This document shows, piece by piece, positions 37,986-63,730 of a DNA stretch of 64,000 nt. The stretch spans positions 436 through 64,435 of the forward strand of contig LCFM01000002.1 in NCBI GenBank assembly GCA_000999025.1, read 5' to 3'. Origin of the DNA: Parcubacteria group bacterium GW2011_GWA2_43_13 (GTDB lineage Bacteria > Patescibacteriota > Patescibacteriia > UBA9629 > GWA2-43-13). Each line of letters begins with the position of its first letter. Within the stretch, counting starts at the first letter, position 1. A program made the position numbers and the translations under genes. The notes beneath the pieces were generated by a model, which was not told the origin of the DNA, did not search any database, and worked only from the letters and a program-made list of their open reading frames with translations.

Positions 37986-38094
37986 TAAAAAAACAGGGTA
38001 AGAACGTTGTCTCACCCTTGCGCATGGAGGATCACTCAATACGGTTTGCCCTTATAAAAGAGGGATTACCTCTCCCAAGAGCGTTGGTTAAAAG

Positions 38095-38485: not shown

Positions 38486-38529
38486 TTAAAGTACCATTAA
38501 AATTTTGTCAACGACTTATCTGTGGATAA
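38486..38529 (-). promoter_or_regulatory. minus-strand promoter (TTGACA-17/18-TAATCT) abutted by a consensus DnaA box TTATCCACA
   Basis: Plus strand reads ttgtcaac-gacttatc-tgtggataa. Confidence 0.4.
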
Positions 38530-38603
38530 CAAAAACAAAAGCGGGGATTATTCCCCGCCATTCGTGAGTTACTTGTCTTATATTCGTGTACCATCCGTGT
38601 CGA

Positions 38604-45575: not shown

Positions 45576-45613
45576 GGCTTCATTCTATAACTCAAGGACC
45601 AGTTTCCTCTTGC

Positions 45614-46369: not shown

Positions 46370-46414
46370 AGCAATAATTCATCAAACATAATTGATAAAA
46401 AAAAGAATACATCT

Positions 46415-46900
46415 TTACAACTGCCCTTTTACATATTTCCACTCAATAACTTCTCCACCTGACAAAGGATATTTTGACGCGCTCACTGTTGCGTATTCGT
46501 TATTCACCCAATACTGCCATGATTGTTCAACTCCTCGATTTTGCTTATCTCCTATTTTTTCAACCATCACGCCAAGAGAATCATACTCTTTAACCTCAAG
46601 GAGAAATTTTTCTTTTTGCGACATTGTTTGTAATACCCCCCATACGGTTGTATCAGAAATGGTAGCGAGAGAGACATCATTCCATGCCTGAATAACACCA
46701 TCGCCAAAATCAAGCATAATACTCACTGTACACGATACCGCCTCCCCTCCTTTACAAGGAGAGGCCAGAGAGGAGGTGGTCGAAGGCGCTTGAGCTATCG
46801 GAGGACTGCCGACATCGTAGCCAACGATAAATGATACAATCACTGCTAAAAACACCAGCAGTGGCCCTATCGCTTTATGATGCTTCCATAAAAACCTCAT
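46415..46900 (-). CDS. membrane-anchored extracytoplasmic protein of unknown function, carrying an in-frame family-B repeat
   Basis: N-terminal TM. Residues SLASPCKGGEAV are encoded by the palindrome 46741..46776. Confidence 0.5.
   Translation of the reverse strand: MRFLWKHHKAIGPLLVFLAVIVSFIVGYDVGSPPIAQAPSTTSSLASPCKGGEAVSCTVSIMLDFGDGVIQAWNDVSLATISDTTVWGVLQTMSQKEKFLLEVKEYDSLGVMVEKIGDKQNRGVEQSWQYWVNNEYATVSASKYPLSGGEVIEWKYVKGQL
46741..46776. repeat. family-B palindrome inside the CDS
   Basis: cctcccctcctttacaaggagagg. Confidence 0.65.
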
Positions 46901-46955
46901 ACATTCGTATTATACTACAACCGAGTTACTTCTCAAACAACCATTCCTATTCCCT

Positions 46956-46985
46956 CAGAGACGGAGCACCGCCCCATCTCTACAC
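46956..46985. repeat. family-A element (degenerate) downstream of nrdJ
   Basis: cagagacgg-agcaccgcc-ccatctctacac. Confidence 0.45.
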
Positions 46986-47008
46986 AATTCGTGAGTTATT
47001 ACCCACAC

Positions 47009-50000: not shown

Positions 50001-50536
50001 GGAGAATTCGGAGCGGCGTACTGACGTATCAGCATAAACGCAAGCTCATCTTCAAAAATTTGCGCATCCTCTGCTGACGCAAAATAGCCGTATTTTTCTC
50101 CCCAATACCTCCAGCATCCTGCAAGACGCGCAACCACCTGGCGCGCGCTTTTCTCCGGCCCCAATACAGACGATCCGTCTTTATCTAATAGGGGATTTCC
50201 ATAGTGATCGTATTGCGGCACTCCTGCTTTACGAAAATATTTTGATACCATAATATCTCCTGCCACTTGAGTCCATTCAGCAGGGATTTCAGCATCCTTC
50301 ATTTCAAACACAACAGATCCGTCAGGATTCGTTATGCGACTTGTTCTTTTTTCGTAGACAACCTCATCTAAAGGATTGCTACCCGGATGAGTAAATCTGC
50401 GAGTAAATCGCATGCCCTTTTCTTTTAATAAATCAGGCACTGCGTATGATGGAATGGTTACTTTTGAGTAATAACCATTCAGCCGCTCAACTTCATGAGC
50501 GACCTTTGAAGAAGGGGAAGAGGATGGGGAGGCCAT
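47009..50536 (-). CDS. nrdJ: class II (adenosylcobalamin-dependent) ribonucleotide reductase NrdJ, 1175 aa
   Basis: RNR 10-strand barrel motifs (NPCSEY, thiyl-radical Cys region) and the class II C-terminal Zn-ribbon CDQCGH...CYKCLNCGN. Two family-A palindromes lie in-frame in its linker regions. Confidence 0.9.
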   Translation of the reverse strand: MASPSSSPSSKVAHEVERLNGYYSKVTIPSYAVPDLLKEKGMRFTRRFTHPGSNPLDEVVYEKRTSRITNPDGSVVFEMKDAEIPAEWTQVAGDIMVSKYFRKAGVPQYDHYGNPLLDKDGSSVLGPEKSARQVVARLAGCWRYWGEKYGYFASAEDAQIFEDELAFMLIRQYAAPNSPQWFNTGLQWAYGITGPAQGHYYPDPETGEVRPSEDAYTHPQPHACFILSVTDDLVNPGGIMDLWMRESRLFKYGSGTGTNFSNIRGVGETLSGGGSSSGLMSFLKIGDRAAGAIKSGGTTRRAAKMVCLNLDHPEIEEFINWKVKEEKKVAALIAAGYDSHFEGEAYTTVSGQNSNNSVRVPHTFMRMIDANGDWNLIRRIDGKPYKTVKSQDMWQKVCYAAWACADPGVQYDDTINEWHTCPQSGRIRASNPCSEYMFLDDTACNLASINLVKFYDYTTRKFDIEGYKHAIRMWTVVLEISVLMAQYPSKEIAEGSYAYRTLGLGYANLGTMLMLSGIPYDTDKARGVAGALTAILTGESYATSAEMASFLGSFPKYELNKNDMLRVIRNHRRAAYNVPREEYEHLDIYPVAIQPEYCPDDLLKAGREAWDKALLWGEQYGYRNAQTTVIAPTGTIGLLMDCDTTGVEPDFALVKFKKLAGGGYFKIANQSIQPALEALNYTPLQIDRMMKHVVGAMTLEGAPHINTETLVAKGFTIDDIAKIEEQLKGVFELSFAFNRFSLGDETLKRLGISEAVYTSPTFNLLKELGFGDQEIKEAQYYVCGTMTIEGAPEMKEEDLAVFDCANKCGNGKRYIAPIAHVKMMASVQPFISGSISKTVNLPNEATVEDISEIYRKAWEWGVKSIALYRDGSKLSQPLNTKSDAQKIEEKKNEQPVETPRWGVSIQGEIAKQEDVQEAHTPMAPTGDRPSYTPTGTMPLPLALTRGEKRSLPKKRNGITVESRVGGHKIFLRTGEYEDGTLGEIFIDMHKEGAAFRSMMNCFAIAISHALQYGVPLEKLIQSFSFTRFEPHGMTDHPNIKTATSVIDFIFRVLAMEYLGRTDLIHVMPEQTGTMLRKDEVVLNRHVQFDIIDHPVESRDGVNPVSTGTSFGFGYDESSVADGPGALSALGDTTGVNKYMSEMMGDAPACDQCGHITVRNGSCYKCLNCGNSLGCS
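47220..47247. repeat. family-A palindrome embedded in-frame in nrdJ (encodes VESRDGVNPVST)
   Basis: gtagagacggggttaaccccgtctctac, a perfect 12-bp stem. Confidence 0.8.
47825..47852. repeat. family-A palindrome embedded in-frame in nrdJ (encodes PVETPRWGVS)
   Basis: ggagacgcccc-aac-ggggcgtctctac. Confidence 0.8.
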
Positions 50537-51425: not shown

Positions 51426-52613
51426 TTATCCCATTTTCTTTCGAAGAAATGTAGGAATCTCAAGATCATCTTCTGCTGGTAATTGTTTTTTATCATTCTG
51501 CCCTTTTTGCTCGCCAAACTGCGGACGCTCATTTTCTTCACTTTCGTCTTTTTGATGAAAAATAGACGGCGCTTTCTTTGTAATATCCTCTTCCCCCTGC
51601 GTCTGTTGGGATCGTTGTTGGTTGCCAAAATCCTTGCGATCGGTATGGGTTCGTGGACCGCGATCTAAGACGCCATCATTGAATCCGGTGGCAACGACAG
51701 TGATTTTGATTTCATCTCCAAGCGAATCATCAATCACAGTCCCAAAAATAACGCGCGCATTCGGGTCTGCCTGTTTGGTGATAATTTGAGCCGCTTCATG
51801 GACTTCATACATTCCAAGAGACGAGTCACCGGCAACGGTGAACAGAATCCCTTTTGCGCCATCAATGGAAACCTCAAGCAAAGGGCTATCAATCGCCGCC
51901 TTCGCCGCCTCTGCCGCGCGATTATCGCCGGTACCGCGGCCAATCCCCATAAGCGCTGAGCCCGCATTCTGCATAATGGATTTAACGTCTGCAAAATCAG
52001 CATTGATCACTCCAGGTACTGTGATTAATTCTGAAATCCCTTGCACGCCTTGGCGTAACACATCATCCACAACTTGAAACGCATCCAAAAGTGTTGTTTT
52101 TTTATCAATAATATGAAGAAGACGATCATTCGGAATGGAAATAATAGTATCAACAACATCTGCCAATTCATCAAAACCGCGTTCCGCTATCGCTTTTCTT
52201 TGCGCGCCTTCAAAACTAAACGGCTTCGTAACCACCGCAACTGTTAATGCGCCCAAATCGCGGGCAATTCTTGCAATAACAGGAGACGCGCCAGTGCCTG
52301 TACCACCGCCAAGCCCGCAGGTGATAAAAATCATATCAGCACCAGCTAATTTTTGTTCTATTTCCTCTGCGCTCTCTTCAGCCGCCCGCTTGCCCTGATC
52401 CGGCTCCATGCCAGCTCCAAGCCCACGCGTAATGGATTTACCAATCTGAATTTTACCTGGCGCTTTGCAATGCTGAATCGCTTGAGCATCGGTATTGATC
52501 GCAAGAAACTCAACTCCGCGAATCCCAACCTGCATCATCCGGCTTAATGCCGAATTCCCTGACCCACCTACGCCCACAACTTTAATTTTTGCAAATGTTT
52601 CAATATCAGGCAT
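51426..52613 (-). CDS. ftsZ: cell division protein FtsZ (alternative starts up to 52712)
   Basis: IKVVGVGGSGNSA and the tubulin signature GGGTGTG, with a C-terminal tail. Confidence 0.9.
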   Translation of the reverse strand: MPDIETFAKIKVVGVGGSGNSALSRMMQVGIRGVEFLAINTDAQAIQHCKAPGKIQIGKSITRGLGAGMEPDQGKRAAEESAEEIEQKLAGADMIFITCGLGGGTGTGASPVIARIARDLGALTVAVVTKPFSFEGAQRKAIAERGFDELADVVDTIISIPNDRLLHIIDKKTTLLDAFQVVDDVLRQGVQGISELITVPGVINADFADVKSIMQNAGSALMGIGRGTGDNRAAEAAKAAIDSPLLEVSIDGAKGILFTVAGDSSLGMYEVHEAAQIITKQADPNARVIFGTVIDDSLGDEIKITVVATGFNDGVLDRGPRTHTDRKDFGNQQRSQQTQGEEDITKKAPSIFHQKDESEENERPQFGEQKGQNDKKQLPAEDDLEIPTFLRKKMG

Positions 52614-52776
52614 AACCTCTGTTACTGATGCATGTGGTTTTAAAGCGTCTTTTTTCATAAGAATAGGCATAAAAAAAGTACTCATTCCGTGAACCCATAG
52701 TACCCCAGCCATGATAAAAAAACAAGGCGATATCTTCTACAGGTTATACACACGGCAAAATAAGGAACAATCACAT

Positions 52777-52959
52777 ATAGAGACATCACACTCCAGAATC
52801 GTACTCAATAACTTGTTAAAATTATGCCTGGCTTGTTTTTCGCTTCAGGGAATTTTCGCCGTATCATTGGATACGGCTCAAATTTCCCTCGTTCCAAAAC
52901 TGCGCCAGACACAATTTTTCCTGCGTTCCAAGTCCGATTCTGGAGTGTGATGTCTCTAC
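52777..52959. mobile_element. MITE-like element in the ftsA-ftsZ spacer: 24-bp perfect terminal inverted repeats TAGAGACATCACACTCCAGAATCG around a 133-bp core
   Basis: Left inverted repeat at 52777..52801 and right at 52935..52959, with no coding capacity. The inverted-repeat core is shared with 27401..27483. Confidence 0.55.
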
Positions 52960-53006
52960 CAAAAAACCGCGCCACAAGAGTGCGCGGAGTACTCTCTGCC
53001 ATACTA

Positions 53007-54242
53007 TTACGCTCCAAGAGAATGGAACCAATCCCTGATTTTTCCTACCCCGTGATGTACTGTTGAAAAACGAGAAAGCATGCCACTTCCGGCTTCTTGA
53101 CGCGAACGATCGCCCCACACAATCAACCCTACTGCTGTTGACAAAGCAGGATCATGCACCTTATCAATTGCGCTTGAAACATCTTTCGGATACCCGATAG
53201 ACGCAGGCAAGCGAAATTCCTTACGCGCGACATCTACCAACCCTTCTAATTTCGCTCCTCCGCCGGTTAATAAAATCCCAGCTGGTAATTTACCAGATCG
53301 CTCAATAGCTTTCAGCTCGCGATCTGCCATTTGAAAAATTTCCTCAACACGAGCAAGAATAATATCTGCAATATGTTTGCGCGATACCACTTCCTGCTCA
53401 CTATCGCCAAATTCCGATAAATCAATTTCTTCTCGCTTATCAATCTCTTCAGGCACAGCAGTGCCGTATCGAATCTTGACCAATTCAGCTGTATCAAGCG
53501 ATGTTCGAAGCCCAATGGCAATATCTGAAGTAATATGCATTGCTCCAACCGGCAAAATCGCAGTATGAATCACGTCACCTTCCTCAAAAACGGCAAGAGA
53601 GGTGGTTGCTCCGCCAATATTTAACAAACACACGCCAAGTTCTTTTTGGCGTTTATTCAGCGTTGCTTCAGCCGCGGCAAGCGGGGCAAGCACAATATCT
53701 TCAATATCAACTCCTGTTCGATAGACCGATTTGGTGATATTTTTCACCTGCGATGACAGACCTTGTATAATCTGTGCTTCCACTTCAAGACGAATACCAG
53801 TCATCCCAACAGGATCTTTAATACCTGACTGGCTATCCACAGTAAACGAACGCGGAATCACATGAAGGATTTCATAATTCGGCGGCGTTGCAACTGCCTG
53901 CGCCGCTTCAAGCGCGCGATCAACATCTTGCTCTCGAATTTCACCGTCAGCTTTCGCAACCGCAACAACGCCCCGAGAACTTTGCGAAAGAATATGAGTA
54001 CCTGCTATTGAAACATACGCATTCTTTGCCGGAATGCCTGTCATGCGCTCTGCTTTTTCAAATGCCGTTGAAATACTCGAAACAGCATCCTCAATGCTAT
54101 TGATGATTCCCTTGCTAATGCCCTCGCTGGGAACTTCGGATATACCAATAATATGCACCGGCTCTTGCGCGATCTTTTGCCCTACCACCACTCGTATCAT
54201 GGTGGAGCCGATATCTAACCCACAAATAATAGTATCTTTCAT
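53007..54242 (-). CDS. ftsA: cell division protein FtsA
   Basis: Actin-like ATPase, starting MKDTIICGLDIGST. Confidence 0.9.
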   Translation of the reverse strand: MKDTIICGLDIGSTMIRVVVGQKIAQEPVHIIGISEVPSEGISKGIINSIEDAVSSISTAFEKAERMTGIPAKNAYVSIAGTHILSQSSRGVVAVAKADGEIREQDVDRALEAAQAVATPPNYEILHVIPRSFTVDSQSGIKDPVGMTGIRLEVEAQIIQGLSSQVKNITKSVYRTGVDIEDIVLAPLAAAEATLNKRQKELGVCLLNIGGATTSLAVFEEGDVIHTAILPVGAMHITSDIAIGLRTSLDTAELVKIRYGTAVPEEIDKREEIDLSEFGDSEQEVVSRKHIADIILARVEEIFQMADRELKAIERSGKLPAGILLTGGGAKLEGLVDVARKEFRLPASIGYPKDVSSAIDKVHDPALSTAVGLIVWGDRSRQEAGSGMLSRFSTVHHGVGKIRDWFHSLGA

Positions 54243-54277
54243 ACATGATTATTAGTATACCATAACACGCTTACTGT

Positions 54278-54754
54278 CTACCACTTTCGCTGTAAAATTT
54301 TTTGTTCAAGCCGCTCCATAACCTGCGCAGAGCGTTCTGTATCGTGATGAACTCCGGCAGTATGCAAAAGACCATGCACCCACAGCCGCTCAAGATGCCA
54401 AGTATATGGTATGCGCAATGAATGAGATTCTTTTCGTATGACATCAGGACACAACACAATTTCCGCCTGCACGCAACGTGCTGTTTTTTCCAATACAAAT
54501 GTCAAGATATTTGTTGATGTGTCTTTTTTGCGAAAATGAGCATTCATTTTTCGAATCGCCTGCGGTTTGACAAATACCACTGAAAGGAGAACCTGATATG
54601 TTTTCAATTCCGTATGCTCAATAACTCGATCAAGGAGATAGTCAAGCCGCTTCCGACGATACCACGCGCCACATGTGTTAGTGATTTCAGTCATATTCAG
54701 TAAAGCCAGCCCTAAAACATCAAAGAATACCATCAGGCGTTGCGATATGCACAC
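54278..54754 (-). CDS. ybeY: rRNA maturation endoribonuclease YbeY (start possibly at 54694)
   Basis: HGLLHTAGVHHD zinc-binding motif. Confidence 0.8.
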   Translation of the reverse strand: MCISQRLMVFFDVLGLALLNMTEITNTCGAWYRRKRLDYLLDRVIEHTELKTYQVLLSVVFVKPQAIRKMNAHFRKKDTSTNILTFVLEKTARCVQAEIVLCPDVIRKESHSLRIPYTWHLERLWVHGLLHTAGVHHDTERSAQVMERLEQKILQRKW

Positions 54755-56513
54755 CAGGAGTAAAACTCACAATTCCTACTCCAAGACAAAAAGAAAATTC
54801 ATACAGCGCGCACGATCCGGTTGCTGTGCATTCTTTTCGCGATGAATCAAGCGCTCGATACTGGAAACGGTTTTTGTCGCCACATGCGCCATCTGCTGGA
54901 GTCGGCGCTTGAGGGAATTGAGGTAAATAAGAAGAGAAGGGCTTTACCTCATCACCGGAAAGCACAGTGCCTTGCGACGCATCGCCAAGCGGATATGAAT
55001 TATTATCGTTATAATACAGCTCAAGCGCAGTTTGAACTTTTTTAACCGATTCAATGCGATCAGTATCGCGAGACACTATATCTTGCGTATTTCTTTTTTG
55101 CGCTCCCTCTACTCGAAGACCCCGCGCAATCATTTCAAACGTTGTTAAAAAATTCAATTTTTGTTTGTTTCCGGATTCGTATTTGAATGAAATAATTTTT
55201 GCCACGCCAACCGCTTTGGTGAACACTGTTTTTTCATCTGCAGTCCACAATAAATCAAGGTTCTGAAACGATTGCACCCTCATTGTTTCCAAAGACGCTG
55301 ATTGATTATGCGCTTGATACCAATCAAGCAATGACGCATTATCCAAATTTTGATCCACTGTAACAGAAATATATTCTTCATCAGTCGTGGTCGCGATAAT
55401 CACTTCATTTTGGGACTGATCGTCAACCGGTTCAGCGGCCCATGATCCGGGATATAATAATGTGTAGCCATGGATCGGATTCGCATAAATCGCTATTTTA
55501 TCATCTTGAGCAAGCCGCGCTTCGCCTTGCTTTCGAGGTGAAAACAAATTCAATACTTCAGCGCCATCGCGATAACTGTCTTTGTCAGTATCAGCAATAG
55601 TAGGATCAGTGCCGTATAAAAATTCTTCCAAATCAGCCAACCCATCGCCATCAGTATCATCGCTCCTTTCCGGCTTGGCGCTCGGTTGCGCTAATTGTTC
55701 TGGTGTCTCTGATTCCGGAACACGCGCAGAAATCACTGCTTGTTCAGACACTATGCCATATGAATCAGCGCTCACTGCGGAAAGAAGCACTGTGGCTTGT
55801 GATTTTTCAGCATCAAAAAAACTGTTTTCCAAAATAGTCCATTCTTCTTTTTCTTCATTCCATGTTGCAATGCGCAGGTCCTTCTGTGTGATATCTTCCG
55901 CCGGAATGGCAATAGACAAAGAAAGCGGTGTGAGGACAGGCGCAACAGGCCGTATGATATATTCGCCATATATACCCTTTCTTTTCATATCCTTGGCATC
56001 ATCGGAGATGGATTTACCAACCAAGGTAAATGATACGCTCTGTTCGTTTTCAGGAACCAACAGTGTGGCACGTGAAATAATTTTTCCAGCTCCGTTCCTT
56101 ACTGCCGCTTCAATCGTTTTTGGCGCCACAATGGATTGTTCCTCTTGTTGCGGCGCACTCTGTTCAATCTGATTTTGCGCAGAAATTTGCTGATTGACAC
56201 CACTGGTTGCCTGCGGTGCTACAAACCGCTTCCCAACAAAAATCCACAACACAACCCCAATAATAACAATCCAAATAATAACAATCAGCCCAATAAGCAA
56301 CCCTTTTGATTGTTTCTTCACTACAGGCGTGCCGGCATGGTGTGACGGCAAAAACCGCTCCGGAATCGTGTGGATTGGAACATGGGGAGCAGAAACAAAT
56401 AGTGCTACCCCCTCTGTTGAAGTATTATGAGAAGGGGTGGCTTGCGACACCAGCGCTATTGCTCCTCCTGCTGTTGGTTGTATTGAAGACACTCCTGTTT
56501 CTGGCATACACAA
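54720..56513 (-). CDS. type II membrane protein with a thrombospondin-type-3-like Ca-binding repeat and a C-terminal pilin/pseudopilin-like globular domain
   Basis: TM at about aa 75-95. DTDGDGLADLEEFLYGTDPTIADTDKDSYRDGAE. C-terminal KVQTALELYYNDNNSYP...C...C resembles a pilin alpha1C/beta-sheet headgroup with a disulfide. Confidence 0.5.
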   Translation of the reverse strand: MCMPETGVSSIQPTAGGAIALVSQATPSHNTSTEGVALFVSAPHVPIHTIPERFLPSHHAGTPVVKKQSKGLLIGLIVIIWIVIIGVVLWIFVGKRFVAPQATSGVNQQISAQNQIEQSAPQQEEQSIVAPKTIEAAVRNGAGKIISRATLLVPENEQSVSFTLVGKSISDDAKDMKRKGIYGEYIIRPVAPVLTPLSLSIAIPAEDITQKDLRIATWNEEKEEWTILENSFFDAEKSQATVLLSAVSADSYGIVSEQAVISARVPESETPEQLAQPSAKPERSDDTDGDGLADLEEFLYGTDPTIADTDKDSYRDGAEVLNLFSPRKQGEARLAQDDKIAIYANPIHGYTLLYPGSWAAEPVDDQSQNEVIIATTTDEEYISVTVDQNLDNASLLDWYQAHNQSASLETMRVQSFQNLDLLWTADEKTVFTKAVGVAKIISFKYESGNKQKLNFLTTFEMIARGLRVEGAQKRNTQDIVSRDTDRIESVKKVQTALELYYNDNNSYPLGDASQGTVLSGDEVKPFSSYLPQFPQAPTPADGACGDKNRFQYRALDSSRKECTATGSCALYEFSFCLGVGIVSFTPGVHIATPDGIL

Positions 56514-56548
56514 TTTATACTGTCATAGTTATAGAGTCATGGTCATCC

Positions 56549-57331
56549 TCACTGCGCGCTCTTGCCCGGCCCTTTAGGATTATACCCATTACGAACCTCT
56601 TGGCCATCATCAAAACCATCGCCATCAGTATCCTTTGAAAGCGGATCCGTACTATATATCTGCACTTCTTCCCGATCAGTCAACCCGTCAAAATCAGTGT
56701 CAGGAAAAAATTGATTTGTATTATACTGAACCTCATCTTGATCAGTCAGACCGTCGCCATCAGTATCAATAACAACTGGCTGATCTTGTGGAAGTTGTTC
56801 TTGAGGCGTGTCTTGTAATTGATCATCAGGGGAAAGCGCGTCAAGGTTAGATGTGGTTGTATCATTTTCCTGTGTCGGTTGAACATCTGATTCACTTTCA
56901 GTTTCAGTGGCAGGAATAGAATCAGCAGGAATGATTGATTGCGAATCAAAGGATGGCAAATCCTCAAGCGTCGGTTGTTTCATCATCGAAAGAACTGCCA
57001 TCGCTCCACCTATAATAATAGCAATTCCCACAACCGCTATGCCGATAATGAGTATCATTTTTCTTCCGCCTTTCGGTGATTTTACTGACTGGGGTTGAGG
57101 GACACTCGGCATTGCCTTTGGCTGTATTTTACCCACAGAGACCGCTGAAGGAGGTGGCGGTGCAGATTGAGCACCCTTGTCTGTTGAGGAAAACATATCA
57201 ACAACGCCTGTGGCAGGAGCTGGTTGAACCATTGGTTCAGGAACAGAAATCGGCGCAACAGGAAGATTAGCCGGTGGCGTGCCTGCTTGCTGATCTGCTT
57301 GAGGTTGAATAGGATCAATATCATCAAACAT
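56549..57331 (-). CDS. membrane protein with three thrombospondin-type-3-like Ca-binding repeats
   Basis: Pro/Gln-rich N-terminus and a single TM. Repeats are DTDGDGLTDQDE, DTDFDGLTDREE and DTDGDGFDDGQE. Confidence 0.55.
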   Translation of the reverse strand: MFDDIDPIQPQADQQAGTPPANLPVAPISVPEPMVQPAPATGVVDMFSSTDKGAQSAPPPPSAVSVGKIQPKAMPSVPQPQSVKSPKGGRKMILIIGIAVVGIAIIIGGAMAVLSMMKQPTLEDLPSFDSQSIIPADSIPATETESESDVQPTQENDTTTSNLDALSPDDQLQDTPQEQLPQDQPVVIDTDGDGLTDQDEVQYNTNQFFPDTDFDGLTDREEVQIYSTDPLSKDTDGDGFDDGQEVRNGYNPKGPGKSAQ

Positions 57332-57350
57332 AGAGAAAAAAAATTAAAAA

Positions 57351-60300
57351 CTATGGTGAAATAACAACATTAACACACTGATTTTCCTGTTCACTGCCCG
57401 AGGTCGCAGGCCCGGAAGGAATTGTCATCATTGGAGCGTCATCAACCCCTACCCATGTAACGCGCTCAAACTCAAAGTGCGCTTTTATATCAAATCTATC
57501 CTGATCAACATACCGATACTGATACACATATGATTCTGGCTTACACACAAACCGCAATCCAATGAGTTGCGCCTTATTCCAGCACGTTGACTGATCATAC
57601 CCTAAAGGACAATCAAAGAGATTCAACGGATCAACCGGAAAAGCCACGCCAACCTGTCGGCCCAATTCCGTTTGCCATGAATTCCATCTACTGGTTGTAT
57701 GATTCTGCTCAAAACTTCCAGCAGGAACAGGCGGATGCCCTGACGCATTGCTCTCTATCGCGCGGACAATATACGTTACGTCCATCACGCGAAGCGCGTC
57801 TCGCCTGAACCGTTCACGCGTTGATTCTGAAGAAAGATTCGTATTAAAGGTCATGCTGTTTACAAGCGCATTAAACAATTGGACAGTCCGCGGTTGAGCG
57901 CCTTCATTATATGATAAAACAGTTACTGTGGTAAAGGCATTGCTCGTACCGTCGTAATCTGCTGAACGCACATACACGCTTGTTCCGGCCCTCGCCGCAG
58001 GATACCCACCCACATTTGTTTGCTCTGTAATCTTTCCTTGCCCATCTGCTATTGGCAAACTTGCCTCCCGAACCCAGTCATCAAGCGAAAGGCGATCATC
58101 ATTTTTCCCAGTCAAAATAATAATCGCATCCGGCTCTTCCGGCTGTTCTGGATTCGGCACCTGAATATAATGAATATTCGTAAAACGAGGTCTGTCAGGG
58201 ATCTCTGTCTTTATACTCACGCGCACAGGCCATGCCTCTTCTTCCAAATCATCAATACACGCGAATGTTGCGAAGTGGGTCTTTATTCCGCTATGCGGAG
58301 ATCTGACGCGCTCCGACGGTCCATCATCAGTAAGTAAATAATTGGTATTGATTTCATTATACGACTCATCCGTGTCTTTTACGACAAAATGCTGTTTACA
58401 TGACTCAATAGTAAACGGATATTCACCAATAATTTTTGTTTTTGTTTCCGGTTCTGATAATTCAGCAATTATTTTATTAGGGATTGCGCGCGTTGTGCGA
58501 CTTGCGACAACCACAGAATGCTGGCCATTTTGTTCAGATATACGAGCGCCTTGACTTGCAATCGTCCATTTAGCAATAGGCGGAGATGAGAGCGGCTGAT
58601 TGCTTGCGGAAAACGGCACGCCGACAAACAACGCTTGCGTGCCCTCATGAATATGCACCTCTGCAGTATCAGCCACCGTCATCCCGGCGACTTCAGCAGG
58701 GGCCACCTGTATCGTTGCCACGCGACATACAGTCGCGGCTGTGGTAAACGACCACACGCACGCGCCTGCATCATTTGACAAAACTGATCCGCACTTCAAC
58801 GACTCACCGTTGCGCCCCCACGATCCAGACAATAATCCAATCTCATATACCGTTGATGGGGAAAAGAGCTGACCACTCGCTGGCCGTATCTGCAAAAGAC
58901 GGCCATCTATTGTTATTTTTCTTCCTGGCACAGAAGGGTTCATCGCTATGAGAGAATCAACCACTGAAGTAGACGCAATTCCGCGATCAAATACTACTTG
59001 AATCAAGCTATTTGTGCATACTTGCGTTGCTTGATCCAGTGGGGCGATATCCACAATAGTCGGTGGGCCGCTGTCTTCACTCCCTTCATGTTCACACGCC
59101 TTAATACTGCCATACGAATATGACACCTCACACGCGCCTTCATTGCAGAGCAATCCATACTCAACAGAGGTTGCTGAAATAATTACATCTCCCATATCAG
59201 CTGTATCTATGTTCCCATCGCGATTGACATCTTCACGCGGACACCCAACGCCTCCAGAGCATAATGGACTCGTTTTCCCTTCTCCAAAACGGCGCGATAT
59301 ATCAATAACCAATTGCGCGCTCGTTTGATCAATAGAGATCACATGAGGAAGGGGAGATTGCATCTGCAAGCGCAACTCGGTATTCTCTGATGGTTTTTGT
59401 TCAACATCACCAATAACAAATTGAAGAACCTTGGTTACGCCTGATGTTGCGCTGGAAAGAGCAATCATACGGCTGACATCCGAGCCCCCAACCTGCTCAA
59501 ACACTTTCAGATTCGCAACAGGAAAAGCAGAAGGGGAAACATACTTATCAAGCGTAACGGTGAGTGTTGCGCGGCATGTTGTTCCTGCGCGCGCGCCATC
59601 AGCAGTGATAGACACAATCCGTATTTGACGAGCAGGATCAGGGATATCAGAACACTCATCACCTGTACATCCTGATCCTTTAGTTGACAAAACAGCGTCA
59701 ATCGGAGCAGTGGCGTCAATATCACCAATAAATGTCCTCATCATGGCTTCAGAATCTGTTAAGTCCGGAAACGCTTTCAATGCCTGAATCTGAAACCGCT
59801 GACTTGGAGGATGAGGATTGGGATTGGAAACCACATACTCAATGCCATGCACCATAACAAAATCAGCTCTGCGGGAGCTCGGATATGCCGGCTCACCTGA
59901 ATCCTGCGCAAATACAGTAATTGTCGCATCCTCACGCGCGCCTACTTTAAGAGAATACTCGCTTTTATTAAATACAATACCAACAACAGGCGCAGGGCCA
60001 CGCGTTACGGAAAATTGATATGAACACGCTTCAGCATTCAGCCCTTTTGCACGTGAACAATCAAGCACTGCTGTCGGCGCTGTGGTTGTTTTTAATGCAG
60101 ATGTATTCAGCGCGACGTTATACGACGCGTTCAAATCAAAATCAATTGGAGATTCAGTTGCGCTCCCTTTGTTCGCAAGTCGGCGTATACGAATTTTTGA
60201 CGGATCAATAAATTCGATAGCGCTGGACCCGTCAGGATTGCGGCTCAAATTCGCCGCGTCTCCTTGCTTGGTAAGTTGAATCGCATCAGGCGTCGCAGTT

Positions 60301-63215
60301 GATGAATCCACAGACGCGTTAAAACTTACAGTCACCATTTCATCTGAATGGCGATTCACTCCTTGCGGCCCTGCCTGCACCACATAAAATGGCGGTCCGC
60401 TTCTTAATAATACTTTTATAATAGAAAATCCTCGTTTCCCCTCGGCGCTTGCAATAACCTGCGTCTCTCCTAATGCCACAGGATCAACGCGCACATTCAA
60501 AGAATCTGCTGTCGCGCCAATCCGGGCAATGGAACTGTCTGATGATTCCCATACCGGCACAACAGTTATACCCTGCTCGCACACTTCGCCAATAGGAACA
60601 GCACTCACGTTCGTCCCCACCCCACCGATTTGCATAGTCACGCTTGAAGGAGACACATTAAGCCGTTTCAATGTATCTGTTTTAGGGATGAATTGAAGAG
60701 ATGACTGACAATCCGTTACCGGACTGTTTGCGCAATCAAGCGCATTGCCCTGCGCATCTTGTACTTCTGAAGATGATTCAACAGCAACAGATCCGCTTCC
60801 AAGCGGCCATTGCTTATTTTCTGTTTGCGGAAAAAATAATACTTTTTTCCCGGATGCCGCTTGAGCGCTGGTATGAGAGAGTGCAGATCCTTCAAAATCA
60901 ATCCGTGTATGAGATGCAACGCTTTCCACGTTCATGGGCCGATCAAATTCAAGCACAATAGAACAATTTGTCGGACTCGGGCCTGTGGGATGAACTTGCA
61001 TCAATCGTGGATTTTTCGGTAAAGGTGGCGGGTTATTCGGATTGCTCGTACCAGGTCCTGTGCCGGGTCCACCAGGACCGGTGCCACGCGGAAACCCTGA
61101 AAGCACACGAAACCATGCAGGCGTTCCTTTATCATCCCCAACAAAAGGCGCAACATATCCTGTGTGTGTTCCAGATGGAATCGTAAATCCAATTTCCGTA
61201 TCGCTGGCAGAAGAAAAATCAGCCCTATTTACTCGTATATCAGAAGCAAGCCCAATATGAGAAATACGGTTTAAATGAATCCCCTCTGTTACCACAGGAA
61301 TATTCACCGGACCTTCAAACGGAGTAATACTGCAGAATCCGGGTCGAGGAGCGCCATTTTCAACAACCACTGGAATACGATTACTCACCTCACTCACACT
61401 GCCTAATGTGTTCACTCTGATTGTGTATTCTCCAATTGCAAGATCATCAGGAATATATATGGTAAGCGAATGATCATTCCATGTTTCAGATGTGCTTTTA
61501 CATACATCAGGAGCATTCGTAATCGTTTTTACCACAGCCCCTTCTTTGATAAATTCCACAGCCCCGCGCATGGATCCAAAATTCCTTCCAACCAACCGCA
61601 ACAATTCTTTTTTTCTTACAGGATTCGGGCTTGCGTCATGAAGATATGGGCTTAAAATATCAATCTGCTCTTTTGACACGGTTTTAAGATCTTCGCCCAA
61701 CCCTATGGTAATTTTTCCGGTTGTGGCGGCAAGGGGAACTTTAATATTGATTTCCGTTTCACCCCACCGCTGGACACATGGCGTTGTCAATAGGTACGGC
61801 GGCGTCGCAATACTGCATGCGCTATCCGCGATTGTCGTGTTAAATGTTACTTCTCCCCGCGCTCCAAATCGGGCGCCGGAAATCGTAACTGTTTGACCAT
61901 AACGCGCTGTTGCAGGAGAAAGAGCGGTTATTTCGGGCTGGCATTCATCTGTTGATTGCACGCCTGTTGAAAATCGCCACACAAAATCTTGAGCAGTATT
62001 TCCAATCGGATCGTCTTGTTTTCCGTTTAAAGGATTGCCGCATACATCTAAAATCCCTTCTCTTTTTTCCGCATCATTTTTTGTATATAACCGCATTTCG
62101 TACTCATGAATTCCTGTTGCCGGTTTTTGAAGTGGCGCAAGCGGCTGGATAGTAAATGATTGAAGATCGCTCCCGATACTAACGGACTTTAAAGGCACTG
62201 ACACACCTGTCTCGGTATCAATCAGCACGATATACGATTGCTGTAATGTTGTGATATCCATCTCCTCGGTAAACACGGCCTGAATCGGCGGAGTCAAACA
62301 AATGTTCGTTGCTCCCGGTCGTGGCGATACGTCAAAAATACGCGGGCCCTCTGTATGATCAACTTGAGGCAACAAATCATCTGCTTCTTCTGCCGCTGAT
62401 GTCGTGAATCGCCACTGACGCGAGGAAGACATCCTTAATCCTGCTAATGTTGTTGCGTCAACTGATGCGCGCGCATCAGTTGAGACCTTTGCTGTATATG
62501 ATGTGTTTAAAAGAAAATCTTTTCGTTCAGCCCCTTCGGCAAGATAAAAACGAAACGCATTCTCATTTACAGAAAGCGCTCCTCCCGATACTGCTGTAAA
62601 CGAAGTTTCCACACCTTCCTGAACCAAAGAAAATGCAGTTGCAAGCGATACTTCATCAACAGTCGAATTAAACACGCCTTGCACCGCTCTACATGCTTTC
62701 ACATTCACTTCATTATCAGCAGGCGAATGAGATGTCAATTTGAATGTATTTCCCGGCGGAGCCAAAAAACAACCATCCCCAATACATGTGACTGGCGGAC
62801 TGCCAGTATCAGAGCCGAGATCGTGTCCTGTGGCGCGACCAATCAGCCAAAAAATAAAATTAGCAATCACAGCCGCGCCTAAAATAATAGCCAACCCTAT
62901 CACGCCATTGATCATGATTTTTTTCGCCTGGCTGATTTTGTCTTGATTCCCTCCAGATGTCATCCAAATAATGCCTGCATAGATAATCAGAATTAATGCG
63001 ATCAATCCTAAAAATCCGAGAAAAATATTAATAACCCGCGCGATGGTTGCAGTCAATGATCCGCGCGCGAGCCCTGTTTGTTCAATCGCAGGCGTGCTAA
63101 AGTCCTCTGTCTGGGCAAAAACAGGAACAGTATGCAACGAAAAAAACGCCACAATCGTGGTAATCCCTATAGCAATGAATCTTGATGTAAACACTGTGTA
63201 TTTATTTTGTTTCAT
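57351..63215 (-). CDS. giant (1954 aa) cell-surface protein: signal peptide, T4SS-pilin-like TM hairpin, multiple IPT/TIG- and Ig-like domains, Pro/Gly linker, dockerin/EF-hand-like DVNRDGNID motif
   Basis: N-terminal IYAGIIWMTSGGNQDKISQAKKIM motif between two hydrophobic helices. Repeated G..I.I.G..FG IPT-like segments. Tightly packed with flanking genes (gaps of 20-36 bp). Confidence 0.6.
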   Translation of the reverse strand: MKQNKYTVFTSRFIAIGITTIVAFFSLHTVPVFAQTEDFSTPAIEQTGLARGSLTATIARVINIFLGFLGLIALILIIYAGIIWMTSGGNQDKISQAKKIMINGVIGLAIILGAAVIANFIFWLIGRATGHDLGSDTGSPPVTCIGDGCFLAPPGNTFKLTSHSPADNEVNVKACRAVQGVFNSTVDEVSLATAFSLVQEGVETSFTAVSGGALSVNENAFRFYLAEGAERKDFLLNTSYTAKVSTDARASVDATTLAGLRMSSSRQWRFTTSAAEEADDLLPQVDHTEGPRIFDVSPRPGATNICLTPPIQAVFTEEMDITTLQQSYIVLIDTETGVSVPLKSVSIGSDLQSFTIQPLAPLQKPATGIHEYEMRLYTKNDAEKREGILDVCGNPLNGKQDDPIGNTAQDFVWRFSTGVQSTDECQPEITALSPATARYGQTVTISGARFGARGEVTFNTTIADSACSIATPPYLLTTPCVQRWGETEINIKVPLAATTGKITIGLGEDLKTVSKEQIDILSPYLHDASPNPVRKKELLRLVGRNFGSMRGAVEFIKEGAVVKTITNAPDVCKSTSETWNDHSLTIYIPDDLAIGEYTIRVNTLGSVSEVSNRIPVVVENGAPRPGFCSITPFEGPVNIPVVTEGIHLNRISHIGLASDIRVNRADFSSASDTEIGFTIPSGTHTGYVAPFVGDDKGTPAWFRVLSGFPRGTGPGGPGTGPGTSNPNNPPPLPKNPRLMQVHPTGPSPTNCSIVLEFDRPMNVESVASHTRIDFEGSALSHTSAQAASGKKVLFFPQTENKQWPLGSGSVAVESSSEVQDAQGNALDCANSPVTDCQSSLQFIPKTDTLKRLNVSPSSVTMQIGGVGTNVSAVPIGEVCEQGITVVPVWESSDSSIARIGATADSLNVRVDPVALGETQVIASAEGKRGFSIIKVLLRSGPPFYVVQAGPQGVNRHSDEMVTVSFNASVDSSTATPDAIQLTKQGDAANLSRNPDGSSAIEFIDPSKIRIRRLANKGSATESPIDFDLNASYNVALNTSALKTTTAPTAVLDCSRAKGLNAEACSYQFSVTRGPAPVVGIVFNKSEYSLKVGAREDATITVFAQDSGEPAYPSSRRADFVMVHGIEYVVSNPNPHPPSQRFQIQALKAFPDLTDSEAMMRTFIGDIDATAPIDAVLSTKGSGCTGDECSDIPDPARQIRIVSITADGARAGTTCRATLTVTLDKYVSPSAFPVANLKVFEQVGGSDVSRMIALSSATSGVTKVLQFVIGDVEQKPSENTELRLQMQSPLPHVISIDQTSAQLVIDISRRFGEGKTSPLCSGGVGCPREDVNRDGNIDTADMGDVIISATSVEYGLLCNEGACEVSYSYGSIKACEHEGSEDSGPPTIVDIAPLDQATQVCTNSLIQVVFDRGIASTSVVDSLIAMNPSVPGRKITIDGRLLQIRPASGQLFSPSTVYEIGLLSGSWGRNGESLKCGSVLSNDAGACVWSFTTAATVCRVATIQVAPAEVAGMTVADTAEVHIHEGTQALFVGVPFSASNQPLSSPPIAKWTIASQGARISEQNGQHSVVVASRTTRAIPNKIIAELSEPETKTKIIGEYPFTIESCKQHFVVKDTDESYNEINTNYLLTDDGPSERVRSPHSGIKTHFATFACIDDLEEEAWPVRVSIKTEIPDRPRFTNIHYIQVPNPEQPEEPDAIIILTGKNDDRLSLDDWVREASLPIADGQGKITEQTNVGGYPAARAGTSVYVRSADYDGTSNAFTTVTVLSYNEGAQPRTVQLFNALVNSMTFNTNLSSESTRERFRRDALRVMDVTYIVRAIESNASGHPPVPAGSFEQNHTTSRWNSWQTELGRQVGVAFPVDPLNLFDCPLGYDQSTCWNKAQLIGLRFVCKPESYVYQYRYVDQDRFDIKAHFEFERVTWVGVDDAPMMTIPSGPATSGSEQENQCVNVVISP

Positions 63216-63652
63216 GCACTCACTTTTTTTACCATATCCGAAACTCGCTGGCCTGTTGCGGTTCCATGTACTTTAGGCATTACAATTTTCATAATCTGCC
63301 CGACATTGTGTACTTCCTCACTCCCCAAATCCGCTATCGCCTCACGTACAATACTCTCCACTTCCTCATCAGACATTTGCACGGGCAGATAACGCCCCAG
63401 AATTACTTTTTCTTTTCCTTCTTTTTCAGCAAGTTCCGGACGGTTGCCTTTTTGAAATGCTTCTTGCGCGTCAGTGCGTTTTTTCACCTCGCGCAAAATA
63501 ACAGAAACAACCTCGTCAGATGACAAGTCATGACCCAGTGCGATGCGCTCATTTTTCAACGCCGCAATCATCATGCGCAATGTATCCACTGTCAGCTGAT
63601 CTCGTGCTTTCATTGCTTGCGTTACATCGTTCTGTATTTTTTCAAATACCAT
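63212..63652 (-). CDS. yqeY: GatB/YqeY-domain protein
   Basis: Start MVFEKIQNDVTQAMKARD. Family of unknown function related to the GatB C-terminus. Confidence 0.75.
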   Translation of the reverse strand: MVFEKIQNDVTQAMKARDQLTVDTLRMMIAALKNERIALGHDLSSDEVVSVILREVKKRTDAQEAFQKGNRPELAEKEGKEKVILGRYLPVQMSDEEVESIVREAIADLGSEEVHNVGQIMKIVMPKVHGTATGQRVSDMVKKVSA

Positions 63653-63730
63653 AGAGAACAAAATTTCACATTATAATAGAGGCAGTGATACTGCCTCTAT
63701 TATACATGCTCTTATCAAAAAAGTCATCAA

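Follow-up and report, generated by a model that had tools for sequence, protein, structure and literature searches.

A three-gene locus in a housekeeping gene cluster of Patescibacteria encodes a candidate cell-surface fibre or adhesion complex with a pilin-like hairpin

The DNA analysed here (referred to as the window) is a 64-kb stretch from Parcubacteria group bacterium GW2011_GWA2_43_13, which belongs to the Patescibacteria (candidate phyla radiation). It contains three adjacent minus-strand ORFs, P1, P2, and P3, with yqeY on one side and ybeY on the other, and ftsA and ftsZ lie downstream of these genes (Table 1). The three consecutive genes described in the initial annotation are thus present, and their flanks match the Pfam families YqeY and YbeY. 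The spacing between them is short, as was also described (20–36 bp), at 19 nt (P1–P2) and 35 or 41 nt (P2–P3), and the yqeY stop and the P1 start overlap by 4 nt. The P3 ORF is 597 aa long if read from a TTG; the 100% identical public protein P0057 (595 aa) begins at an ATG at position 56507, which is probably the true start. The locus shows no GC anomaly, and its substitution rates are similar to those of YqeY and YbeY. We found no description of it in the literature.

Table 1. Coordinates of the genes, domains and motifs in the window
Feature	Position	Strand	Basis
P1, UV70_C0002G0068, giant surface protein, 1954 aa	57351..63215	-	ORF; public protein P0001 100% identical
P1 signal peptide, residues 1-35	63111..63215	-	hydrophobic residues 7-25; AxA-type VFA/Q at residues 32-35
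P1 VirB2-type two-helix hairpin, residues 53-121, basic loop TSGGNQDKISQAKK	62853..63059	-	PF18895; TM 64-82, 100-118
P1 Big_5 Ig-like domain 1, about residues 158-272	62400..62744	-	Pfam Big_5 2.9e-08, segment alone
P1 Big_5 Ig-like domain 2, about residues 288-365	62121..62354	-	Pfam Big_5 8.8e-10
P1 IPT/TIG domain, about residues 427-503	61707..61937	-	Pfam TIG
P1 Gly/Pro-rich stretch, residues 707-736	61008..61097	-	sequence reading
P1 most variable stretch, residues about 1100-1500	58716..59918	-	per-100-residue identity
P1 single EF-hand/dockerin-like loop DVNRDGNIDTADMGD	59187..59231	-	within variable stretch
P1 Big_5 domain, residues 1381-1459, within variable stretch		-	Pfam Big_5 1.4e-08
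P1 C-terminal cassette, residues about 1664-1954	57354..58226	-	AF2; hhalign; profile search
P2, 260 aa, bitopic	56549..57331	-	ORF; TSP3_bac; TM
P2 TSP3 repeats x3	56564..56773	-	TSP3_bac
P3, bitopic, 595/597 aa	54720..56513	-	ORF; P0057; full-length homologues in L001, L003
P3 cytoplasmic motif IHTIPERF	56352..56375	-	recurs in P3-like proteins of other loci
P3 TSP3 repeats, two DxDxD(G/S) copies, residues 286-331	55521..55658	-	TSP3_bac + motif
P3 PsbP/Mog1-like domain, residues 336-470	55104..55508	-	AF2, Foldseek, profile search
P3 pseudopilin-head-like module, residues 476-597	54723..55088	-	AF2, profile searches
yqeY, upstream flank	63212..63661	-	Pfam YqeY 1.5e-44
ybeY, downstream flank, directly after P3	54278..54754 as listed	-	Pfam YbeY 4e-22
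ftsA	53007..54242	-	96% identical to L001 gene carrying the Pfam family
ftsZ	51426..52712	-	92% identical to L001 gene carrying the Pfam family
Whole downstream flank, ybeY + ftsA + ftsZ	51426..54754	-	Pfam (ybeY), identity to L001 (ftsA, ftsZ)
ORF211, 384 aa, paralogous hairpin protein	211..1365	-	PF18895; hairpin HMM
ORF211 hairpin	967..1149	-	hairpin HMM 2.5e-23

Hydropathy analysis of P1 identified a signal peptide, presumably cleaved after VFA and before Q35, and two TM segments. The latter belong to a hairpin (motif YAGIIWMTSGGNQDKISQAKKIM at residues 79–101) that scores 33.1 bits against the Pfam T4SS_pilin family (PF18895; gathering cut-off, 26.6 bits), in agreement with the earlier suggestion that the N-terminus resembles TrbC/VirB2-type T4SS pilins. 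Basic residues are located in the loop of the hairpin and beside the TM segments. Identity among homologues is mostly 40–57% in this block and falls to ∼25% in other regions. Because no other part of P1 is as well conserved as the hairpin, and because its sequence type (GGFxWMTxGGNxxK...AKK) is that of free-standing small array pilins, it probably mediates specific helix packing, by self-assembly or by co-assembly with small pilins, beyond acting as an inert anchor.

A second hairpin protein in the window, ORF211, likewise has a signal peptide and two TM segments by hydropathy, and scores 30.5 bits against PF18895 (cut-off, 26.6 bits). Across 61 aligned residues, its hairpin (motif YGGMVWMMSRGDDQKIQQGKEIM at residues 91–113) is 38% identical to that of P1 (compositionally corrected E 2e-13), so the match between the two hairpins noted initially holds, and an HMM built from homologues of the hairpin matched only these two proteins in the window. 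ORF211 is not a member of the P1–P2–P3 locus; its neighbours are DnaB, two small ORFs, a P-type ATPase and AspRS. The CHAP/NlpC-P60-like hydrolase label previously given to its C-terminus is not supported, as no CHAP or NlpC match was obtained in Pfam, NCBIfam, PHROGs or PDB sequences.

Among known systems, the VirB2-like pilins (PF18895) of the same phylum share with P1 the signal peptide and the two-helix hairpin with its characteristic loop. In Southlakia epibionticum, the array of such pilins (SEML1_0014-0017) is essential and lies in a T4SS cluster (PMC10633639; survey, PMC12102498). In an alternative reading, P1 is a minor or tip pilin-adhesin of the Patescibacteria T4SS pilus. A VirB4/VirB6 machine encoded elsewhere would pull the hairpin out of the membrane and assemble it into a polymer with small VirB2-like pilins, so that the giant Ig-like chain is displayed on the pilus, with P2 and P3 as accessory or anchoring proteins. 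The score, conservation and sequence type of the hairpin fit this idea, as do the wide occurrence of VirB2-like pilins in Patescibacteria (PMC10633639, PMC12102498) and the fact that Gram-positive-type T4SSs normally require an adhesin, whereas a survey of Patescibacteria T4SSs found no PrgB-like adhesin (PMC12102498). However, domain searches including Pfam detected no VirB4, VirB6 or VirD4 within the 64-kb window, consistent with the initial annotation as regards VirB4 and VirD4, and none near ORF211. Furthermore, the reported T4SS clusters are located near dnaA/dnaN or comF/recG/radA (PMC12102498), whereas the present locus keeps a constant place amid genes for translation and division. The VirB2-like pilins are 110–215 aa long and arranged in tandem, unlike the 1954-aa P1 with its Ig-like ectodomain and conserved cassette, and the helical lattice of VirB2 could hardly accommodate a C-terminal extension of 1,830 residues per subunit unless the stoichiometry were low. 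On balance, we regard a tip pilin as unlikely.

The ectodomain of P1 consists chiefly of Big_5 domains with a single clear TIG domain according to Pfam, and not of ∼1800 aa of IPT/TIG-like repeats as first described. The TIG domain scores 28.2 bits as a segment (cut-off, 20.9 bits) and 20.4 bits in the whole-protein scan. A Gly/Pro-rich stretch at residues 707–736 is a possible hinge. In the most variable stretch (residues ∼1100–1500), identity per 100 residues is 53–62% to P0002, compared with 64–83% elsewhere, and 27–34% to P0003. The dockerin-like Ca-binding motif proposed earlier is not supported, as P1 yielded no Pfam Dockerin match at E <= 1 and contains just one DxNxDGxID loop. No domain recognisable as an adhesin tip or a lectin was detected.

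P2 and P3 each have one TM segment by hydropathy and D[TS]DxDG motifs (three copies in P2 and two in P3), as expected from their initial description as single-pass proteins with TSP3-like repeats. P2 matches Pfam TSP3_bac at 3e-17 (62.6 bits), and P3 at 21.7 bits, under the 25-bit cut-off. In P2, a Pro-rich, predicted cytoplasmic tail (MFDD..., VVDMFSSTD) is followed by a TM segment (residues 92–110), an acidic linker, the three repeats and a GYNPKGPGK end. The tail motifs are kept in homologues, P2-like proteins carrying MFDD / DDIFAETD, and the P3 motif has the family consensus (I/V)H(T/K)MPE(K/R)F. Extracytoplasmic DxDxDGxxDxxE repeats of the Ca2+-binding type also occur in other bacterial TSP3 proteins of the envelope, among them CglD and MtsD of Myxococcus and members of the OmpA family that have TSP3 linkers. 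Unlike these, P2 and P3 are small, bitopic and from a monoderm, and their cytoplasmic tails are conserved; the NCBIfam CglD/MtsD matches are weak (25 bits versus equivalog cut-offs of 400–800).

Residues 336–470 of P3 are predicted to take a PsbP-like fold, of the type seen in PsbP/Mog1/DcrB/Tsi3 domains. The AF2 model of this region (local pLDDT about 85) matched cyanobacterial PsbP in Foldseek (2lnj, E 1.2e-5, probability 1.0; 2xb3, E 7.7e-5), and profile A1 retrieved PsbP from PDB sequences at E 0.011. The Pfam PsbP score is 14.7 bits (cut-off, 23.5 bits), and there is no functional link to photosystem II. The following module (residues 476–597) was modelled as a helix (476–504) and then strands, and includes ALELYYNDNNSYP at residues 496–508. 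GspG/EpsG were the sole PDB matches of profile A4 (E 0.05–0.2) and the top seven in a second profile search. The pseudopilin-like headgroup proposed earlier has GspG/EpsG as its leading matches, but E-values over both searches are 0.05–0.8 and the Pfam T2SSG score is below threshold, which makes the GspG-like assignment a weak one.

On profile comparison, P1 and P3 carry a homologous cassette of a PsbP-like and a pilin-like part (hhalign of the P1 cassette against the P3 family: 97.5%, E 7e-12). In P1, an alpha/beta domain homologous to the PsbP-like domain of P3 precedes a long helix and a beta module (RRDALRVMD...VDPLN), and the AF2 model has a pLDDT of 86 and a pTM of 0.85. The P1 cassette had no Pfam match, and its model no significant PDB or viral match in Foldseek. 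With the GspG pseudopilins of type IV pili and T2SSs, the last domains of P3 and P1 share the sequence pattern RDxxRxxD...AL(E)xY...YP...P.DP and a predicted fold in which a long helix precedes a beta sheet. Unlike these pseudopilins, they have no prepilin leader or hydrophobic N-terminal helix and are soluble domains inside or ending large proteins, and with similarity below significance the second half of the cassette is only weakly classed as pilin-like. The cassette is common to about 30 of the giant homologues, and its profile matched 1,676 cluster representatives (1,363 at E <= 1e-30), mostly proteins of 1,500–3,900 aa. An HMM of the pilin-like module of P3 directly matched cassette proteins of other loci.

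We compared the locus with eight metagenomic loci and with loci from a scan of GTDB species genomes, in which at least 586 loci were confirmed and the best 80 examined. The order LepB-HisS-S21-YqeY-[pilin fusion(s)]-TSP3 genes-YbeY-FtsA-FtsZ is seen in most of the eight; L012 and L013 deviate in the flanks or downstream genes. Large pilin fusions are encoded in 71 of the 80 best species-representative loci. HisS, S21 or YqeY is located upstream in all 50 large-fusion loci whose upstream sequence extends for 3.5 kb or more, and TSP3, cassette or PsbP-like genes are located downstream in 28 of the 30 loci with at least 1.5 kb of downstream sequence. One locus (L075) matches the architecture of the window exactly. 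The check proposed initially, on co-occurrence, found the three genes together and in order even in relatives with only about 25% identity. The yqeY...ybeY-(dgkA)-ftsA-ftsZ position is invariant in distant lineages, and in many lineages of Patescibacteria the locus is a fixed part of this cluster of housekeeping genes. S. epibionticum, a Saccharibacterium amenable to genetics, has no large gene at the equivalent positions (adenylate kinase follows S21-YqeY, and small hypothetical genes follow HisS); therefore, no essentiality data can be transferred to this locus.

This invariant position and the YqeY/YbeY-like substitution rates would also suit a structural envelope role other than host adhesion, such as an S-layer-like coat, a wall-spanning scaffold or a division-site complex, in which the hairpin anchors the coat, and P2 and P3, through their conserved cytoplasmic motifs, link it to cytoplasmic partners such as the neighbouring FtsA/FtsZ. 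Many S-layers are Ca2+-dependent, and TSP3 repeats are present here. However, the adjacency to ftsA/ftsZ may be frozen gene order only, because ybeY and often dgkA intervene, and L012 retains the module without the ybeY/ftsA flank. We detected nothing resembling a known S-layer protein, an SLH domain or a divisome protein, and a single hairpin-anchored chain of 2 kaa would be atypical for a lattice-forming protein. We consider such a role rather improbable. It is very improbable, in our estimation, that the three genes are functionally unrelated neighbours, with P1 a generic secreted giant and P2 and P3 generic membrane proteins with Ca repeats, whose order is merely inherited. In favour of this view, TSP3 and Ig-like domains are widespread and promiscuous, and most homologue-search matches are unrelated TSP3 proteins. 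Nevertheless, their co-occurrence survives large shifts in gene number and domain order, P1 and P3 have a specific cassette in common, and within single loci this cassette moves among the giant, a separate 1,000–1,260-aa protein and a P3-type protein.

We put the chances at about even that P1, P2 and P3 form a fibre or adhesion complex of the cell surface, specific to Patescibacteria and inherited vertically, and not a secretion machine. A physical association of the three would be suggested indirectly, by synteny and shared domains. P1 would be exported by Sec, lose its signal peptide and be held in the cytoplasmic membrane by the VirB2-type hairpin with the basic loop towards the cytoplasm. 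Its remaining ∼1,830 residues would extend outward as a fibre of Ig-like domains followed by the variable middle region, with the PsbP-like domain and the pseudopilin-head-like module at the distal end. P2 and P3 would be oriented N-in C-out with putatively Ca2+-binding TSP3 ectodomains, and TSP3 repeats and cassette–cassette contacts may organise or tether the fibre at the envelope. The long exposed Ig-like chain, the monoderm-type cell and the proposed role in cell–cell contact are shared with giant repetitive Ig-like surface adhesins such as the Enterococcus conjugation adhesin PrgB, a 7651-aa Mobiluncus adhesin (PMC10619420) and giant membrane proteins of Vampirococcus (PMC8080830). P1 differs in being anchored by a pilin hairpin and not through LPXTG/sortase, a TM segment at the C-terminus or T1SS retention, in having no recognised tip adhesin domain, and in being encoded at a core-genomic, not accessory, locus that is syntenic in many lineages. 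Host-specific adhesins are not usually linked so tightly to housekeeping genes, which counts against an adhesive role.

Giant membrane proteins of CPR cells have been proposed to form a fibrous, host-binding surface (PMC8080830), and T4SS-pilin-domain proteins are among the highly expressed genes of Paceibacteria attached to methanogens (PMC10936435). To the initial annotation, our analysis adds the P1–P3 cassette homology, the predicted PsbP-like domain of P3 and the fixed housekeeping position of the locus in many Patescibacteria lineages. The assembled complex would be a fibrous surface and contact structure with which these host-dependent cells may bind partner cells.

The three consecutive minus-strand genes between yqeY and ybeY, P1, P2 and P3, lie exactly where the initial annotation had placed them. 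The P1 product is a 100% match to the hypothetical protein UV70_C0002G0068 of Parcubacteria group bacterium GW2011_GWA2_43_13, and the ATG at 56507, within P3, is the start of a public protein identical to P3 (P0057, 595 aa). The yqeY stop (Pfam YqeY, 1.5e-44) and the P1 start overlap by 4 nt, the P1-P2 and P2-P3 gaps are 19 nt and 35 or 41 nt, respectively, and P3 is directly followed by ybeY (Pfam, 4e-22), ftsA and ftsZ. A promoter/terminator scan, in which the counts of sites were close to chance, detected no terminator-like sites within either gap, and these terminator-free gaps are weak evidence that the three genes may form one transcription unit. The GC content of the locus is unremarkable. 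Because of this normal GC content and the fixed housekeeping context described below, an origin of the locus from a mobile element is unlikely.

Positions of the three genes, of ORF211 and of the sequence features of their products
Feature	Position	Strand	Description
P1	57351..63215	(-)	1954-aa ORF
P2	56549..57331	(-)	260-aa ORF
P3	54720..56513	(-)	597 aa, counted from TTG
ORF211	211..1365	(-)	384-aa ORF outside the P1-P2-P3 locus
P1 Big_5	residues ~158-272, 288-365 and 1381-1459; weak at 748-826		Pfam
P1 TIG	residues 427-503		single domain; 28.2 bits vs 20.9 cut-off, scanned as a segment
P1 Gly/Pro-rich stretch	residues 707-736		
P2 tail	57179..57331		conserved short cytoplasmic motifs
P3 tail	56352..56375		conserved short cytoplasmic motif

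P1 contains a hydrophobic signal segment (residues 7-25), with a candidate cleavage site between VFA and Q (residues 32-35), and two transmembrane (TM) helices (64-82 and 100-118) with the basic loop TSGGNQDKISQAKK between them. This arrangement is shared by ORF211, which likewise has a signal segment, two hydrophobic helices and a short basic loop. Both proteins exceeded the 26.6-bit cut-off of the Pfam T4SS_pilin family (PF18895), P1 with 33.1 and ORF211 with 30.5 bits; the P1 score for TrbC (PF04956; 18.9 vs cut-off 27.9) and that for the NCBIfam Mbov_0395 pilin-like model of mycoplasmas (25.2 vs 40) were below threshold. The two hairpins align with 38% identity (E 2e-13), and an HMM built from hairpin homologues matches only P1 and ORF211 within the window. 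The central observation of the initial annotation, a VirB2/TrbC-type pilin hairpin in both proteins, thus holds on the PF18895 scores, the alignment, the HMM and the TM layout. Because the residues of the loop are basic, it presumably lies inside the cell, which would place the P1 chain beyond residue ~121 outside. In size, P1 (1954 aa) and ORF211 (384 aa) are unlike a hairpin-only pilin: their free-standing relatives, which share this hairpin and its WMT(S/A)GGN...K...AKK loop, are 113-215 aa long.

The hairpin is one of three conserved blocks of P1 identified by BLAST with 56 homologues, among which its identity is mostly 40-57%; the other two are the TIG region and residues ~1690-1925, for which no Pfam match was found. 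This conservation is far higher than a passive anchor requires and suggests a specific packing of the helices, and it keeps alive the rather unlikely reading that P1 is a minor pilin of a T4SS pilus. No VirB4, VirB6 or VirD4 family was detected among the Pfam-scanned ORFs of the 64-kb window, in agreement with the initial annotation, which had reported no VirB4 or VirD4 gene. The neighbours of ORF211 are dnaB, two small ORFs, a P-type ATPase gene and aspS, with no VirB4/VirB6-type family beside it. The CHAP/NlpC-P60-like hydrolase previously assigned to the ORF211 C-terminus was not recovered in Pfam (segment search, E <= 10), NCBIfam, PHROGs or PDB sequences; its ACAWS and RHIGIC motifs resemble a Cys-His core by eye only.

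Several other features of the window are worth recording. An anthranilate-synthase/PabB-like pair (34592..36762), consisting of a 525-aa protein with Chorismate_bind and Anth_synt_I_N domains and a 195-aa GATase, seems unexpected for a reduced genome; the local GC content is raised (0.49 vs about 0.44 elsewhere), and for this reason a horizontal acquisition is possible. A stretch of ~1.6 kb (36950..38600) contains neither an ORF of >=125 aa nor an Rfam match at gathering level, in a genome that is otherwise tightly packed. Two sizeable ORFs, 4764..5966 (400 aa) and 28252..30039 (595 aa), have no Pfam match, and, of all 2-kb bins of the window, the one that contains the former has the highest GC content (0.517). 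At 30827..30901, ARAGORN predicted a tRNA-Pro(GGG), for which the Rfam tRNA model was silent at its gathering threshold. In the region 44922..50536, a class II ribonucleotide reductase that depends on B12 and contains a TSCPD domain adjoins NrdR, and just downstream lie DUF4430 and DUF6580 genes, which we take to be possibly related to cobalamin uptake; the pairing of the reductase with DUF4430 also occurs in L006, a locus from another genome.

The long P1 ectodomain had been described as a series of IPT/TIG-like repeats spanning about 1800 aa, with a dockerin-like motif. This description is only roughly right. The ectodomain contains mainly Big_5 domains (106 bits overall in Pfam; four segments over the cut-off, one weak) and one TIG domain. 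The segment containing DVNRDGNIDTADMGD gave no match to Dockerin (PF00404) at E <= 1, and DVNRDGNIDTADMGD represents one loop only, whereas dockerin has a duplicated Ca-binding loop-helix. Residues ~1100-1500 are the least conserved part of P1 relative to its two closest relatives.

In P2, a Pro-rich cytoplasmic tail precedes the single TM segment (92-110), and an acidic linker leads on to three TSP3_bac repeats (PF18884; 62.6 bits vs cut-off 25). P3 begins with a cytoplasmic tail, a single TM segment (73-91) and a predicted strand-rich, mainly beta region (132-256). The TSP3 repeats formerly noted in both proteins are clear in P2; P3 has two copies of the motif and scored just below the cut-off (21.7 bits), and P3-like homologues do carry PF18884. 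The search with full-length P3 returned mostly unrelated TSP3 proteins, with ~10 true homologues among the matches. Two of the matches (P0066 and P0076) are Sortase-domain proteins fused to TSP3 repeats, a hint that TSP3 modules may generally serve these organisms as envelope spacers.

In the AF2 model of P3 (overall pLDDT 63), residues 336-470 are predicted with a pLDDT of ~85. The model matched cyanobacterial PsbP in Foldseek (2lnj, E 1.2e-5; 2xb3, 7.7e-5; probability 1.0), as well as Tsi3, Mog1 and DcrB, and a sequence profile of residues 336-470 independently ranked PsbP first (E 0.011), with the Pfam PsbP score below the cut-off. This part of P3 is thus predicted to be a PsbP/Mog1-like fold; a protein search with an alignment of the domain returned two fragments only. 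Residues 476-597 were modelled as a helix (476-504) followed by strands (pLDDT about 60-70). GspG/EpsG were the only PDB matches of one profile of this module (E 0.05-0.2) and the top seven of a second one (E 0.06-0.8), and Pfam T2SSG scored 12.7 bits for P3 and 16.1 bits for a homologue, both below the cut-off of 21. Pilins are defined by a prepilin leader and a hydrophobic N-terminal helix, but this module has neither and starts after a soluble domain. In addition, the G[FYW][TS][LIVM][LIVMP]E-type motif is absent from P3 and from every ORF of <400 aa in the fetched loci, and no canonical type IV pilin genes were found in any of these loci. The earlier proposal of a pseudopilin-like end is weakly supported: the module may resemble a pseudopilin head, and it is not a pilin.

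The PsbP-like domain and the pseudopilin-head-like module recur together at the C-terminus of P1. P1 residues 1640-1954 yielded a confident model (pLDDT 86, pTM 0.85) in which an alpha/beta domain leads into a long helix and then strands, and a profile-profile comparison of this cassette with the P3 family (97.5% probability, E 7e-12, 156 columns) covered the PsbP-like domain and the RDxxRxxD...YP helix. An HMM of the P3 module also directly matched cassette proteins of other loci. The pieces of the cassette are shuffled among relatives: in loci L006 and L008 the pilin-like module immediately follows the TM segment of a P3-type protein, and in L012, L017, L027 and others the whole cassette forms the N-terminus of a separate secreted protein of 1,000-1,260 aa. 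That the three genes are merely unrelated neighbours is very improbable, because the cassette is common to P1 and P3 and is shuffled in this manner. Of 1.84 billion cluster representatives, the cassette profile retrieved 1,676 (1,363 at E <= 1e-30), and these are mostly proteins of 1,500-3,900 aa. Foldseek searches of the P1 cassette against the PDB and viral models yielded nothing significant. The cassette defines a domain family, about 1,700 clusters in size, that had lacked annotation.

The co-occurrence of the three genes was examined in eight contigs with P1 homologues (71% down to ~25% identity). In most of them, the genes are arranged as (LytR)-LepB-HisS-S21-YqeY, an optional pilin fusion of 575-906 aa, the giant gene, TSP3 genes and YbeY-(DgkA)-FtsA-FtsZ. 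L012 lacks the yqeY/ybeY/fts flank, and L013 has a tandem duplication in place of the TSP3 genes, with the fusion pair duplicated. In the closest relative, the identity is 71% for P1, 57% for P2 and 66% for P3, and 66%, 67%, 96% and 92% for the flanking YqeY, YbeY, FtsA and FtsZ, respectively. A genome scan with P1 alone as the query identified no relatives; a scan of one genome per GTDB species with the hairpin alignment as the query confirmed at least 586 loci. Among the best 80 of these, 71 encode large fusions, 7 are small-pilin arrays (5-8 pilins of 113-215 aa each) and 2 are of other types. Where a large-fusion locus has >=3.5 kb of sequence on its upstream side (50 loci), HisS, S21 or YqeY is invariably encoded there, LepB in 47 of them, and TSP3, cassette or PsbP-like genes lie downstream in 28 of the 30 loci with >=1.5 kb of downstream sequence. 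Two tandem fusions (~500-1,050 aa and ~1,600-3,460 aa) are present in 59 of the 71 large-fusion loci. This is the arrangement of most lineages (e.g. L019, L025 and L035), whereas the lineage of the window has the giant gene only, directly after yqeY; L075 has exactly the layout of the window. According to record titles, the locus-bearing lineages include Magasanik-, Uhr-, Falkow-, Kuenen-, Komeili- and Jacksonbacteria, Parcubacteria and Saccharimonadales. The three genes thus co-occur in relatives, as the synteny of both fetched and scanned loci demonstrates. They form a conserved module in which a giant Ig-like protein anchored by a hairpin is combined with TSP3 bitopic proteins, with a two-domain cassette common to the proteins; in many lineages this module keeps the same place within a cluster of housekeeping genes.

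Short cytoplasmic motifs are also conserved, N-terminal MF(D/E/N)(D/N) and (V/D)DIFAETD in P2-like tails and (I/V)H(T/K)MPE(K/R)F(L) in P3-like tails (homologues from L029, L033, L039, L046, L070, L075 and L093), and suggest a conserved cytoplasmic binding partner. Together with the core-genome position of the locus, these motifs (MFDD / DDIFAETD and IHTMPE(K/R)F) leave standing another explanation, decidedly unlikely in our estimation, in which the locus encodes an envelope scaffold or is linked to division.

VirB2-like pilins have been found in about 1,950 Patescibacteria assemblies, and in S. epibionticum an essential pilin array lies inside the T4SS cluster; a PrgB-like adhesin was reported not to be found (PMC12102498, PMC10633639). 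Giant fusions and the P1-P2-P3 locus go unmentioned in both papers, and text searches of the literature retrieved no description of the locus. Two essential S. epibionticum genes, SEML1_0890 and SEML1_0891, were considered as orthologues of the fusions and rejected (195 and 565 aa). In this organism no large gene follows S21-YqeY or HisS, and therefore no genetic data can be transferred. The small-pilin arrays do not adjoin VirB4 in the four sampled loci: three arrays (L026, L072 and L078) are flanked by solute-binding-protein and nucleotidyl-transferase genes and the fourth (L095) by oxidoreductase and phosphoglucose-isomerase genes, and the large ORFs sampled up to 10 kb from the arrays gave no VirB4-like match, two of these ORFs being Pfam-negative.

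The locus falls among known kinds of proteins, the VirB2-like pilins of Patescibacteria and giant Ig-like surface proteins. Highly expressed genes of methanogen-attached Paceibacteria include those for T4SS-pilin-domain proteins (PMC10936435), and the fibrous surface of Vampirococcus has been proposed to consist of giant membrane proteins (PMC8080830). We consider the chances about even that P1, P2 and P3 assemble into a Ca2+-dependent complex of the envelope and that the surface fibre built by this complex serves in contacts with partner cells. A more far-reaching reading, rather doubtful as a whole, is that of an undescribed, phylum-wide surface organelle of Patescibacteria. Its VirB2-type hairpins, alone or with small pilins, would be polymerising or lattice-forming membrane anchors of the giant Ig-like fibres, the TSP3 partners would hold these fibres via the shared PsbP-like and pseudopilin-like docking cassette, and the conserved cytoplasmic motifs would connect the organelle with the interior of the cell, perhaps with the divisome. 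If true, such an organelle could be what the fibrous coat or pili-like structures of CPR cells consist of, and also the missing adhesin of the CPR Gram-positive-type T4SS.

Patescibacteria, a very large and mostly uncultured share of bacterial diversity, rely on host-cell contact, and few of the proteins that make up their surface and bring about this contact have been identified. The locus is widespread and undescribed in the literature searched, occupies ~8.5 kb of a genome that is probably <1 Mb, and is conserved in position across many lineages; the only studied relatives of the P1 pilin module are essential for epibiotic growth. These findings raise the question of whether, outside a T4SS cluster, giant proteins can re-use the VirB2-type pilin hairpin for anchoring or assembly, and provide a concrete candidate for a surface fibre or adhesin of Patescibacteria.
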